DNA of 64,000 nucleotides from contig JBDKUT010000163.1 of NCBI GenBank assembly GCA_039679545.1, forward strand, positions 1-64,000, in the 5' to 3' direction. Origin of the DNA: Thermotogota bacterium. Lineage in GTDB: Bacteria; Bipolaricaulota; Bipolaricaulia; UBA7950; UBA9294. A program made the translations under genes and the position numbers. Each line of letters starts with the position of its first letter. The first letter of the stretch is position 1. This document shows positions 9,377 to 13,193 of this stretch, piece by piece. Under the pieces are notes generated by a model, which saw nothing but the letters and a program-made list of their open reading frames with translations, did no database searches and was not told the DNA's origin.

Positions 9377-9384
9377 AGTTTAAC

Positions 9385-9407
9385 GGCGTTTATCGGCTTG
9401 ACTTAGG
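9385..9407 (+). repeat. Left terminal inverted repeat of the IS1595 element (TSD AGTTTAAC at 9377-9384)
   Basis: Direct sequence comparison with 11617-11639. Confidence 0.93.
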
Positions 9408-9426
9408 CCGCTGATCGTGCTATGCT
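9398..9426 (+). promoter_or_regulatory. Sigma70-type transposase promoter with -35 inside the left TIR
   Basis: TTGACT-17 bp-TATGCT with a TG extension. AAGGAGG RBS precedes ATG 9447. Confidence 0.7.
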
Positions 9427-9446: not shown

Positions 9447-10307
9447 ATGGATACGAGCGAGATCAAATCCTTGGAACAAGCGCGGCGCGAGTTCTCAACC
9501 CGTACCAAGTGCGAGAAGCACCTAGCTGCCTTGCGTTGGCCGCATGGTGTGACCTGCCCAAAGTGCGGCCACACCCACGTCTACTGGCTCAAGAATCAGC
9601 GCCTATGGGAGTGCGCCGCTTGTAAGCATCATTTCAGCGTTACAAGCGGAACGATCTTCCACCGCTCGAAGATCGACCTCCCGCGTTGGTTTGTAGCCAT
9701 TTGGGCCATGTGCCACAGTCCAAAGGGTATCTCGGCCAAGCAGCTAGAGCGCGAGTTGGGCGTCTGCTACGAGACGGCCTGGTACATGGCGAAGCGTATA
9801 CGGCGCGCCATGAAACACGACATCTTCGAGGACAAGCTGTGCGGGATCGTGGAAGCCGACACAGCCTCTGTGAAGTCCGATGGGGGACGGTCTACGGGCG
9901 CTGGATGTAGAGCCCCAAGTACCAACGTCCTCGGCATGGTGGCGCGAGAGTCGGGGGCGCTGCGAATGGAGGTTGTGCGGAGCCTAGAAAAGCACGAGAT
10001 TGAGCGCGTTTGCCTGTCGAACTTCGGTCTTGTCCGTCACCTCTACACCGACGCCGCGAAGTCGTTCAGCCTCATGGCGCTCCACACTCACCTATTCCAG
10101 GTCACCCACGAGCACGAATACGTTCGCGGTGACGTGCATACGAACTACGTGGAGAATGCATGGTCTCTCTTCAAGCGCGGTCTAGTAGGCCAGTTCCACC
10201 ACGTCAGCGCGAGGTTGTTGCAGTCCTACCTCGACGAGTTCGCGTTCCGGTACTCGCACCGCAGAGAGAAGGGGCGGATGATGGATCTGGTGCTAGCGGC
10301 GTGTTGA
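9447..10307 (+). CDS. IS1595-family DDE transposase
   Basis: Zn ribbon CPKC...CAAC, FSVTSGTIF, SAKQLERELGV HTH, VEAD, LYTD and HTNYVENAWSLFKR...YLDEFAFRY. Confidence 0.95.
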   Translation: MDTSEIKSLEQARREFSTRTKCEKHLAALRWPHGVTCPKCGHTHVYWLKNQRLWECAACKHHFSVTSGTIFHRSKIDLPRWFVAIWAMCHSPKGISAKQLERELGVCYETAWYMAKRIRRAMKHDIFEDKLCGIVEADTASVKSDGGRSTGAGCRAPSTNVLGMVARESGALRMEVVRSLEKHEIERVCLSNFGLVRHLYTDAAKSFSLMALHTHLFQVTHEHEYVRGDVHTNYVENAWSLFKRGLVGQFHHVSARLLQSYLDEFAFRYSHRREKGRMMDLVLAAC

Positions 10308-10397: not shown

Positions 10398-10856
10398 ATG
10401 ACGACACAGAGTAGAGGACCTTTTCTTCAGGCGGCTCTGCTGTGTGAACGAGCGCTCCGTGAGAAGGATGATGTCCTAAGCATCATCCGCATTGTCGATC
10501 GTTGGCATGTGGGTATGCCTCCAAGAAAGCCAGAAGATCCTCCCTACGCGGCAACCATTCCGGCAACTGGCGTCATCATGCTAAAATCGGGCGATTATAA
10601 GGGCAAGAAGATGCTCGGCCTGAAGATTGTCGCCCCGGATGGCGTGGTCAGCGACTTGGCGGGCATGCCCCTTCTCTTTGAAGGCGACGAGCGTGGAGTG
10701 AATGTGGTGATGACCGTAAACATCCAAGCGCAGAAAGAAGGTCTGTACTGGATAGATGTCTACCTCGATGATGACTTGCAGACCCGTATCGCGTTTCGGA
10801 TTATGTTCGAGTACGTCATCACTTCTAGCGGCGCATCTGAACAGCAACGACCATAG
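10398..10856 (+). CDS. IS passenger protein 1, DUF6941-like (predicted beta-sandwich)
   Basis: AGGAGG RBS. The AALLCE..D..LSIIRIVD and EGLYWIDVYLD pattern is recalled from the DUF6941 family; not searched. Confidence 0.7.
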   Translation: MTTQSRGPFLQAALLCERALREKDDVLSIIRIVDRWHVGMPPRKPEDPPYAATIPATGVIMLKSGDYKGKKMLGLKIVAPDGVVSDLAGMPLLFEGDERGVNVVMTVNIQAQKEGLYWIDVYLDDDLQTRIAFRIMFEYVITSSGASEQQRP

Positions 10857-11133
10857 TCGTGGACGCTGTTCTGGTGACTGGATTCTGTGGGACCAACTCA
10901 ACCACCTCGGAAGCCAGCGCCGATAGCCTCGCGCGAAGGCGGTCCTCATCAATTGCTCCAGCGCTGTGCTCAACTAAAGCGTGCTGTATCTCTGCGAACA
11001 ACCGAGGAGTTGCATCGCTACAGAATGCGTCCTCGACAAGGATGGGCATGAACCGCTTTACGAATGCACGAAGAGACAGTTCTCTAAGCAGATACCGAAT
11101 CAGCAGCGACCTGGCCTCCAGAGTCATAGCCAT
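10825..11133 (-). CDS. IS passenger protein 2, small helical protein with a colicin-D-immunity-like pattern
   Basis: C-terminal 102 aa of ORF 10825..11616 (MAMTLEARSLLIRYLLRELSLRAFVKRF...AIDEDRLRARLSAL) reads as amphipathic helices. Its 3' end overlaps passenger 1. Confidence 0.55.
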   Translation of the reverse strand: MAMTLEARSLLIRYLLRELSLRAFVKRFMPILVEDAFCSDATPRLFAEIQHALVEHSAGAIDEDRLRARLSALASEVVELVPQNPVTRTASTTMVVAVQMRR

Positions 11134-11571
11134 ATGATAGCCATTATGGTCGCAGGGCGGCCGTGTCACAAGTGGAGCAGTGACAGAGAACTCAGGCGCA
11201 GATTCGAGCGATATGGTTATCTGGCCGCATATCGACGAGAGGAGTTCGATATTGACGTACAGGAATCGACTCCTTTCACCGGCCCCAGTACGGACGATCG
11301 AGCCGGAACTCTCAGCCAGACGGCGTGGCTTAGAGCGCGACCCGGTCACCAGAAGGTCGCCCTGATCCATCGTTACGTCCGGCAGGACGGCACATTGGCC
11401 GCTTCCGGGAAGCCGGACCCCAAGATCGTGGTTTGCGATGGGGTCGCCTACTGTTGGAAAGCGTGGCGAGGAAACCCAGCAAAGACAATGCGCTTTCTCG
11501 CAGACTGGTTCTCGATCTACACACCAACTGCTGTATTCATGCACCAGGTCGCCATCCCCTGCTCCGGCTGA
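11134..11571 (+). CDS. IS passenger protein 3, unknown function, with an HxYxxxDGxxxxSGxPDPK motif
   Basis: Protein-like part of ORF 10981..11571 (ELRRRFERYGY...VALIHRYVRQDGTLAASGKPDPKIVVCDGVAY). Start at 11134 or 11146. Ends 46 bp before the right TIR. Confidence 0.55.
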   Translation: MIAIMVAGRPCHKWSSDRELRRRFERYGYLAAYRREEFDIDVQESTPFTGPSTDDRAGTLSQTAWLRARPGHQKVALIHRYVRQDGTLAASGKPDPKIVVCDGVAYCWKAWRGNPAKTMRFLADWFSIYTPTAVFMHQVAIPCSG

Positions 11572-11616: not shown

Positions 11617-11639
11617 CCTAACTCACCCCGATAAACGCC
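11617..11639 (-). repeat. Right terminal inverted repeat of the IS1595 element (TSD AGTTTAAC at 11640-11647)
   Basis: Direct sequence comparison with 9385-9407. Confidence 0.93.
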
Positions 11640-11702
11640 AGTTTAACTGGCACAATAGGCGCAGTTACCCTACAATTGGTCTATGCCAAGGCGGTGATTG
11701 GT

Positions 11703-13193
11703 ATGACCGTCATCGAACACAAAGGAGAGGGCGGGCCGCTTCACGCACAGATCGCCAGTTCCCTCCGGGCGCGGATCGAGCAGGGCGAGCTGGCGGGCGG
11801 TGAGCGACTCCCGACAACCCGCGACCTGGCGAAGGACCTCGGCGTCAGCCGCAGCACCGTGGTCCGCGCCTACGAGCAGCTGGCTCGCGAGGGCCGCGTC
11901 GAAGGACGAGTCGGAATGGGAACCGTCGTTCGATCCTCCCCTTCGCCGTCCTCCGAGGATCGCGTGAACTGGAATCTCCTCCTCACGCCCAGGGTGCAGG
12001 AACCGGACTCCGAGTACCGGCAGGTCCTTCGGATGCTGTCGCAGACGGACATCTTGTCCTTCGCCGGCGGCCTCCCCTCCCCCGAGTTCTTCCCGGGCGA
12101 CTCCTTCCAGCAACTGGCCGACGGGGTGCTGCGCCAGCAGGGGACGAAGCTCTTGCAGTGGTGCCCGATCGAGGGATACCCGCCCCTGCGGAGCTGGATC
12201 GCGGATCGAATCGGCTGCCCGATGGAGAACGTGATGGTCTTGTCGGGGTCCACGCAGGGAATCCACCTCCTCGCCCAGGCGTTCCTCGAGCCGGGGGACA
12301 CGGTTCTGGTCGAGGCTCCGACGTACGCCGGAGCCATCCAGGCGTTCCGCGGTGCCGGCGCGCGCCTCGTGTCCATCCCTTCAGGCGCCGACGGCATCGA
12401 CCTCGAGCGGCTGGACGCGACCCTCGACCGGGTGCGCCCGAAGTTCCTGTACGTGATCCCGACGTACCACAATCCAACCGGAGGGAGCCTCCCCTTTGCG
12501 AAGCGAGAGGCCCTCTTGATGCTGGCCGCGCGCCGCGGCCTCGCCATCGTCGAAGACGATCCCTACTCCACGCTGCGCTACGATGGCCCACCGCTCCCAA
12601 GCCTGCACTCTCTCGATCGAAACGGATGCGTAATCTACCTCTCCACGTTCTCGAAGTCCGTCTTCCCCGGGCTCCGGATCGGCTGGCTGGCTGCCCCGAC
12701 CAGGCTCCTGCCACGACTTGTGAGCCTGCGGAACGTGATCGACCTGTTTACGAACAGCCTCGCCCAAGGGAGCCTGTACGAGTTCTGCAAACGCGGGATG
12801 TTCGACGCCCACCTGCAGCGGGTGCGCGACGAGTACCGCGTGCGGCGGGACGCGATGGCTGCGGCCCTGCGTCGCTACGCCCCGGACGTCTCGTTCGACG
12901 TTCCGCACGGTGGCCTCTTCATCTGGACGAAGATCCCGAACGAGATCGACGCCCGTCGCCTGCTCGAGGAGGCCATCGAGCTGCACCTCGGGTTCATCAT
13001 CGGCTCGCTCTTCTACGCCGAGCCGGAGGGGCGAGACCGCATTCGTCTCTCGTTCGCTTGCCATCCTCCCGACGCCATCGCCGACGGGATGCGGCGCCTC
13101 GGTCTCGCGCTGCAGCGTTCGCTTTCCTCCGGCGCCGCCGCCTCGGCCGATAGGAAGACCCACGAGCCGGCCGTCGCGAGCGTCGTCGTCTAG
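11703..13193 (+). CDS. MocR/GabR-family transcriptional regulator (GntR wHTH plus PLP aminotransferase domain)
   Basis: RLPTTRDLAKDLGVSRSTVVRAYEQL HTH, HNPTG, IVEDDPY and STFSKSVFPGLRIGW. Confidence 0.92.
   Translation: MTVIEHKGEGGPLHAQIASSLRARIEQGELAGGERLPTTRDLAKDLGVSRSTVVRAYEQLAREGRVEGRVGMGTVVRSSPSPSSEDRVNWNLLLTPRVQEPDSEYRQVLRMLSQTDILSFAGGLPSPEFFPGDSFQQLADGVLRQQGTKLLQWCPIEGYPPLRSWIADRIGCPMENVMVLSGSTQGIHLLAQAFLEPGDTVLVEAPTYAGAIQAFRGAGARLVSIPSGADGIDLERLDATLDRVRPKFLYVIPTYHNPTGGSLPFAKREALLMLAARRGLAIVEDDPYSTLRYDGPPLPSLHSLDRNGCVIYLSTFSKSVFPGLRIGWLAAPTRLLPRLVSLRNVIDLFTNSLAQGSLYEFCKRGMFDAHLQRVRDEYRVRRDAMAAALRRYAPDVSFDVPHGGLFIWTKIPNEIDARRLLEEAIELHLGFIIGSLFYAEPEGRDRIRLSFACHPPDAIADGMRRLGLALQRSLSSGAAASADRKTHEPAVASVVV

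Follow-up and report, generated by a model that had tools for sequence, protein, structure and literature searches.

Two small genes lie back to back inside an insertion element of a Thermotogota bacterium, and their arrangement raises the question of whether they form a functional unit and, if so, of what kind. The initial annotation, made on the whole stretch of DNA analysed here (64,000 nt; the window), read them as a toxin–antitoxin-like pair with an unusual divergent layout, comprising a colicin D immunity-like protein on the minus strand and an enzyme-like protein on the plus strand. We refer to the plus-strand gene as PDPK and to the minus-strand gene as the partner; they are listed with the other features of the element in Table 1.

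Table 1. Features of the IS1595-family element and its cargo in the window (positions are those of the window).
Feature	Position	Strand	Remarks
Left target-site duplication AGTTTAAC	9377..9384		
Left terminal inverted repeat, IS1595-family element	9385..9407	+	23 nt
IS1595-family transposase (zinc ribbon + DDE)	9447..10307	+	PF12760, PF12762 and NF033547 over cut-off
DUF6941 gene	10398..10856	+	PF22091
Four-helix ImmD-like gene (partner), predicted antitoxin/immunity protein	10825..11133	-	102 aa
C-terminal tail of the ImmD-like protein	10828..10905	-	26 residues, Ser/Thr/Val-rich
ATAGCCAT tandem repeat	11126..11144		private to the window
CATATG, abutting start codons	11131..11136		variant of the family's shared CATG
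PDPK gene, predicted toxin	11134..11571	+	145 aa; alternative start 11146
Sigma-70-like site TTGTGA-17-CATAAT inside PDPK gene	11143..11171	-	predicted
PDPK residue His79	11368..11370		
PDPK residues Asp-Pro-Lys 95-97	11416..11424		
Right terminal inverted repeat	11617..11639	-	23 nt
Right target-site duplication AGTTTAAC	11640..11647		

We collected 84 loci through PDPK alone, namely four from the window's phylum and the best 80 of 114 from a genome collection, and found a divergent partner directly upstream of PDPK in 81 of them; the three loci without an intact partner are accounted for by a contig end, by an IS inserted into one copy and by a frameshift in another. All paired loci are divergent in orientation. 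Both ORFs are conserved, and both genes are real and under purifying selection, with a pN/pS of 0.23 for PDPK and 0.31 for the partner when pooled over 15 non-overlapping close pairs. Two competing reading frames in the window were set aside as shadows: a 92-aa plus-strand ORF (10859-11137) of the conserved partner gene, and a 263-aa extended minus-strand ORF that runs antisense over the conserved PDPK gene. The latter frame is present from the window in a protein collection from which PDPK is absent, indicating that gene calling lost PDPK here. Within the window's phylum the pair occurs in 4 of 184 genomes, and the four strong partner hits are the four PDPK loci. Its spread extends to Chloroflexota, Acidobacteriota, Nitrospirota, Actinomycetota, Planctomycetota, one archaeon and five viral contigs (IMG/VR). 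Among the 115 nearest neighbouring ORFs, taken from a subset of loci cleared of duplicates, most are unrelated housekeeping genes close by; they do not form defence islands and include no recurring secretion genes. Second copies of the pair were seen within 1.5 kb in Tepidiformaceae (L019:4405-5005, L048:2976-3541, L052:2968-3542 and L057:4392-4990), two of them with a frameshifted PDPK, and a single genome, G184, holds six partner copies (G184:C1). By eye, the cassette in L007 and L027 appears just past the end of a tRNA gene, on the left flank of DUF6941.

IS1595-family elements habitually carry passenger genes, and the element in the window resembles them in its transposase family, short terminal inverted repeats, 8-nt duplication and cargo downstream of the transposase. 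Its transposase has the zinc ribbon and DDE domain of the family, the repeats and the target duplication are in place at both ends, and the 2,255 nt between 9385 and 11639 enclose the transposase, DUF6941, the partner and PDPK. A promoter-like site at 9398-9426 faces the transposase and has its -35 inside the left terminal inverted repeat. The insertion carrying both genes is recent; the element has a G+C content of 57% versus 65% for the genome, and an empty site with the flanks joined was found in three of five congeneric genomes, the other two having the flanks on separate contigs or a single flank only. The pair itself is not IS-specific. An IS1595 transposase lies beside only 4 of the 84 loci, plus one viral contig, so that the placing of the pair inside an IS in the initial annotation describes the window and not the family, for which the element is merely one carrier. 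In Acidobacteriaceae, an IS1595 element with 27-nt inverted repeats surrounds the transposase, DUF6941 and the pair (L072:1900-4450), and an IS1595 transposase lies upstream in L025, L033 and the viral L180 too. A transposase-free mini-element with terminal repeats was considered and rejected, as an inverted-repeat score of at least 16 was reached in 1 of 81 loci (L072); this flanking-repeat scan overlooked the window's own repeat, the left boundary having fallen inside the transposase, and among the 80 other loci only L072 has a strong flanking inverted repeat.

In the window the two ORFs abut head to head at CATATG without intergenic space, exactly as first described. The tandem ATAGCCAT repeat around this junction is likewise there (11126-11133 and 11137-11144), but among 76 loci this 8-nt repeat is found in the window only and is not a family feature. 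Start-codon overlap, by contrast, is a family trait: both ATGs overlap in one CATG in 58 of 77 scorable loci, the CATATG variant occurs in three (window included), and one relative reading phase is kept in 67. The starts were chosen by script as the pair nearest the CATG layout, a choice of which the phase count is independent. Since any insertion or deletion in a junction without spacer hits a gene, inheritance alone could keep the phase. The minus-strand start of the window, 11133, is backed by P0168; the plus-strand start may be 11134 or 11146: the closest relative, P0006, begins MIA yet aligns from residue 5. At L052:3955-3965 a single base change from CATG to CAGG removes both starts, through either mutation or an assembly error. 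Start-start overlaps are a known and rare type: those of the AT and CATG kinds make up 73% of divergent overlaps, and divergent overlaps 0.9% of bacterial overlaps (10.64898/2026.09.10.750558; here and below, as given in the accessible part of each cited source). The overlap found here is of the same type as these and as that of excludons (PMC7154746), with the differences that a single gene family shows it as a rule, over many phyla and at ~30% protein identity, and that it joins a predicted toxin to its predicted inhibitor, toxins receiving no mention in the accessible parts of either source.

Expression signals at this junction are unequal. An SD of -5 kcal/mol or better is found at 63 of 76 partner starts versus 17% of controls, with the partner's SD written in the first PDPK codons, and at 29 of 76 PDPK starts versus 14% of controls; neither of the two starts in the window has one. 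When antisense promoter-like sites were scored with sigma-70 weights, 20 of 57 PDPK genes came within the top tenth of codon shuffles over their first 90 nt (11 and 12 of 57 in deeper PDPK windows), as did 5 of 57 partners over their 5' ends, which equals chance; the test left out 19 near-duplicate or odd loci. The suggestion that each gene has its promoter within the other is accordingly upheld for the immunity-like gene but not for PDPK. Judging from these scores, transcription of the partner probably starts at a promoter of its own within PDPK, and in the window the sigma-70-like site is positioned for a near-leaderless partner message. With the signal enriched in PDPK 5' ends and not in those of the partner, transcription of PDPK is more likely due to read-through, either out of DUF6941 or from farther upstream. 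No -10 peak lies upstream of PDPK starts, and a symmetrical leaderless design was therefore discarded.

Loss of one gene beside the other was surveyed with both profiles in 401 genomes of the phylum of G184, about 11 candidates per genome being scored. An adjacent partner was present at all 41 PDPK loci. Of 60 partner hits, eight weak ones (E above 1e-6, in genomes without a PDPK hit) were left out, five of which were inspected and belong to a separate conserved group. The remaining 52 partner loci comprise 31 with both genes intact, 16 with an intact partner next to a PDPK that is stopped, frameshifted, IS-hit, truncated or gone (13 with visible remnants), one with a broken partner beside an intact PDPK (L026, identical to L100) and four that could not be classed. 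For this 16-to-1 asymmetry the binomial p is 3e-4, which overstates the case in that related genomes do not count independently. Assembly errors may explain some of the frameshifts counted, but not the IS insertions and deletions. In the deletion remnants L109 and L172 only the first 12-18 PDPK codons are left, the site of the partner's ribosome site, and L094, L122, L133, L167 and L168 are partner-only loci. A second phylum sample of 391 genomes contained three PDPK loci, all with a partner, and two partner-only hits, too few loci for a decay test. One-sided loss is the pattern expected of a toxin with an antidote.

In sum, both genes are conserved, their start codons overlap or abut, they are inherited together, and their decay is one-sided. 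We consider it probable that the back-to-back pair is a toxin–antitoxin cassette whose toxin is held off by both a partner protein and an antisense message, and the toxin–antitoxin-like character first proposed fits the co-occurrence, the one-sided gene loss and the charge complementarity of the products (PDPK net positive in 64 of 75 loci, partner core net negative in 74 of 75, although nearly neutral at -1 in the window itself). The basic PDPK protein would act inside the cell as a small toxin directed at nucleic acid, and the acidic four-helix partner is predicted to neutralise it by binding. The partner promoter would lie within the first codons of the toxin gene, and the partner's message would cover the toxin start codon as antisense RNA, while the toxin, having no promoter signal of its own, would depend on read-through, out of DUF6941 or from farther upstream, in what would be a noncontiguous operon. 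Such an arrangement, with the partner promoter inside the toxin gene and the toxin reached only via read-through, would hold the toxin off at the RNA and the protein level. In the two-gene form both outer ends are 3' ends, and the partner should thus stay expressed wherever the cassette lands.

A third gene, whose link to the partner's tail is absent from the earlier reading, is associated with about half of the loci. The DUF6941 gene of the window matches PF22091 with an E-value of 6.8e-6 and 26.9 bits, just below the cut-off of 27, its structure neighbours in the Atlas are DUF6941 clusters, and it has a strong ribosome-binding site (SD energy -13.5). DUF6941 is adjacent in 42 of 84 loci, co-directional with PDPK and tail to tail with the partner, giving the order DUF6941(+), partner(-), PDPK(+) with an opposite-strand gene between co-directional genes; in the window the last 32 nt of the partner gene, including its stop, overlap the DUF6941 3' end. 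When a more sensitive profile was applied, partner tails measured 26-74 residues in all 42 scored loci with DUF6941, versus a median of six residues in 32 loci without it, three of which reach 25 (L083 and one short-flank locus were left out of this comparison). A divergent DUF6941 subfamily (~20% identity) lies left of the partner in L020, L031 and L058, still with a tailed partner. The cultured strain Thermalbibacter longus carries copies of both kinds, with DUF6941 and without it (L034, L062). No SecB similarity of DUF6941 was detected with Pfam, a profile search of PDB sequences or among the Atlas neighbours, and a literature search returned no paper on DUF6941.

Given a toxin system, the association suggests that DUF6941 may stabilise the tailed partner, which we put at slightly less than an even prospect. 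It would do so by binding the partner's unstructured tail and keeping the partner stable, much as SecB does in toxin–antitoxin–chaperone systems, and loss or titration of DUF6941 would then free the toxin. Somewhat less probable, but still a serious possibility, is that the toxin–antitoxin reading is right and DUF6941 a passenger, the tail being a by-product of convergent overlap that is kept open for RNA-level reasons. The tail partly overlaps DUF6941 in 35 of 39 loci, as such a by-product would; yet 14-50 of its codons lie outside the overlap in all 39 and stay open, the other two frames being open in only 15 and 14. No motif is shared among tails and their third-position bias is mild, both of which suit a passenger, as do the long tails in 3 of the 32 loci without DUF6941, whereas their composition, rich in Ser/Thr and beta residues and poor in charge compared with the core, speaks against it. 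The DUF6941 label changes at least five times on well-supported branches (13 times on the best quick tree), and the tail shortens without DUF6941 in ~4.9 of 5 independent tree pairs and does the opposite in none, a trend for which significance is out of reach with only five well-supported pairs (sign test p 0.06). The fullest version of the stabilisation reading is tentative and on the whole unlikely. It would be a new three-part toxin class with a toxin of unmatched fold, an ImmD-like antitoxin encoded antisense from the toxin's start codon, whose single transcript would serve as antidote message and silencer alike, and DUF6941 in the role of a non-SecB chaperone or sensor, holding the antitoxin by the tail and setting the toxin free under stress or during phage infection.

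What the two proteins of the predicted cassette might do was approached through conservation and fold. Among 50%-identity representatives we found 180 relatives of PDPK, and the family consensus is HxY..DG.LGASG.PDPK. In an alignment of 93 sequences that was not built on the motif, H79, D95 and P96 are each conserved in 92, K97 in 87 and T59 in 85, which bears out the enzyme-like motif first noticed in the plus-strand protein. Its model consists of two helices and an antiparallel sheet (pLDDT 88), residue covariation within PDPK being too weak to fix the strand register. Foldseek found no hit for the model in PDB and viral libraries, no clear match to any known nuclease fold was obtained, and, with regard to the BECR fold of Tox-ColD-type RNases, RelE-type and other toxin–antitoxin chains reached Z 2.2-3.2 at most (7vd7_A Z 3.2, 3g5o_B Z 2.2); with no clear fold match, a nuclease role rests on motif and charge. 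Scans of PDPK and the partner with Pfam, NCBIfam, PADLOC and PHROGs gave nothing at a meaningful level, a word-based search for PDPK homologues found none, a metagenome scan for PDPK none that was confirmed, and plasmid records no match to the window PDPK protein.

The partner is modelled as four helices with a low-confidence tail. Among 48,161 chains its top structural match is ImmD (1tfk_B, Z 9.4, rmsd 2.5, 74 aligned; next 7.9), a moderate score below the ~13 level at which the tool is trusted for helical bundles, and the highest Foldseek TM-scores also belong to ImmD (0.56-0.57 by query, but with an E-value of 5.6). An Atlas cluster with 39% PF09204 members scores 0.89 against the partner. 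At the sequence level PF09204 matched none of 66 partner members at E 0.01 and gave no match at the partner gene in five genomes. The colicin D immunity-like four-helix pattern first noted thus reappears in the model and in its top match, subject to that helical-bundle level, and the fold searches suggested at the time gave no clear match for PDPK. The antitoxin VbhA was matched by 3 of 66 partners with an E-value of 0.001 at best and was not relied on.

The best of the weak PDPK fold matches are PC4-like single-strand binders (5a4n, Z 4.3; 5zkl, Z 4.0), and these point to another reading, quite unlikely in our estimate, in which the genes form a harmless two-protein unit: PDPK would bind single-stranded nucleic acid and the four-helix protein would regulate it or have a use of its own. 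One-sided decay would then follow simply from PDPK remnants retaining the promoter and ribosome site of the partner. The partner-only loci, the one intact PDPK beside a broken partner and the lack of a defence-island context agree with this, but entanglement of the two genes accounts for the partner surviving and not for PDPK being almost never alone: among 33 intact PDPK genes for which the partner state could be scored or a contig end was reached, only one survives alone. The near-invariant His, Asp, Lys and Thr moreover suit an active site, and ImmD as the partner's top fold match argues in the same direction.

Polymorphic-toxin operons run toxin then immunity, an order unlike the divergent layout seen here. 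Besides this layout, the failure of any longer protein carrying a PDPK domain to score among 7,996 candidates (a weak test), the absence of a real long hit among the best 150 of the 180 representatives and the lack of recurring secretion genes among the neighbours make it very unlikely that the pair is a detached polymorphic-toxin cassette, that is, an exported antibacterial nuclease tip with ImmD-type immunity kept mainly against neighbours, even though ImmD-type proteins partner secreted Tox-ColD domains (PMC3482391) and orphan partners and several copies per genome, six in G184, would suit it.

In our assessment the predicted toxin–antitoxin cassette is not a member of the colicin D/ImmD, TAC or classical type II families, each of which it resembles in part. 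As in colicin D and ImmD (1tfk, 1v74; PF09204; PMC3482391), a small acidic protein, here modelled as four helices, goes with a basic alpha+beta protein containing a conserved His and Lys. Unlike ImmD, the partner has no sequence match to PF09204; and unlike Tox-ColD, the PDPK family consensus lacks the [KH]K and Hxx[ED] motif given in the accessible part of PMC3482391, and colicin D is not among the fold matches listed for PDPK from PDB and viral libraries. PDPK also differs from colicin D in having no receptor or translocation domains, and the genes are divergent. A closer parallel in layout is Tha-1/Ith-1 of S. aureus phage 80alpha, a noncontiguous operon whose toxic effector is encoded on one strand and its protein inhibitor, Ith-1, on the other, Ith-1 having its own promoter and a transcript antisense to the effector's operon (PMC11087260). 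The predicted effector and inhibitor described here are likewise on opposite strands, but the proteins are unrelated (Tha-1/Ith-1 involves a HEPN RNase), their function is proven there and inferred here (PMC11087260), and the present cassette has overlapping start codons and is mostly chromosomal, between unrelated genes.

The antitoxins of TAC systems bear a C-terminal extension, ChAD (PMC5105189), and some TAC systems defend against phage (10.1101/2024.02.24.581848). The variable C-terminal extension of the putative antitoxin similarly goes with a third gene (42 of 42 versus 3 of 32 loci). Unlike in TAC, that third gene is DUF6941, in which the searches above detected no SecB similarity, the tails are Ser/Thr/Val-rich rather than aromatic/basic, the toxin and antitoxin are not HigBA, HicAB, MqsRA or CmdTA, and the genes are not one co-directional operon. 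Type II toxin–antitoxin systems share with the pair the two small, adjacent, co-inherited genes (81 of 84 and 41 of 41 loci), from which the divergent layout again departs. Each element of the design has a precedent, and neither the proteins nor the combination were found in the libraries and literature searched. No description of the system was found in the literature, which was mostly open-access; supplements, for example of PMC3482391, may list these families.

The analysis defines two unnamed protein families, PDPK alone comprising 180 clusters at 50% identity, both of which would be overlooked by searches that expect a co-directional toxin–antitoxin operon. Should the favoured reading be true, it would add a toxin without a clear structural relative and a case in which a junction of four letters unites antisense control with control by a protein, and it would give DUF6941 its first testable job. 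All three genes are under 500 bases and testable in E. coli.

Relatives of the partner also occur apart from PDPK. A distant one (L090:1492-2006, L089:864-1121; hhalign probability 86%) lies downstream of, and co-directional with, an unnamed 85-aa protein that carries an HEKYP motif and lacks a Pfam match, and the two are possibly another unnamed toxin–immunity pair; no homology to PDPK was found for the small protein upstream of the relative in L090. In L120 and L174-L177 a stand-alone distant relative of 83-88 aa occupies one conserved chromosomal spot without PDPK.

The genome of the window contains two further IS1595-family transposases (G000:C147:13355-14790 and G000:C8:15068-16800; 76% and 51% identical), which adjoin other ORFs than those in the window, and two related copies are present in a congener (G142:C1:22238-25605). 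Related transposases with different neighbouring ORFs indicate that this element family swaps cargo. On the right side of the insertion in the window, the IS ends ~30-55 nt upstream of a gene, within the stretch 11640-13193, that looks like one for a GntR/MocR-type PLP-dependent regulator, with a promoter-like site beside it at 11647-11676, and the insertion may change the expression of this gene.
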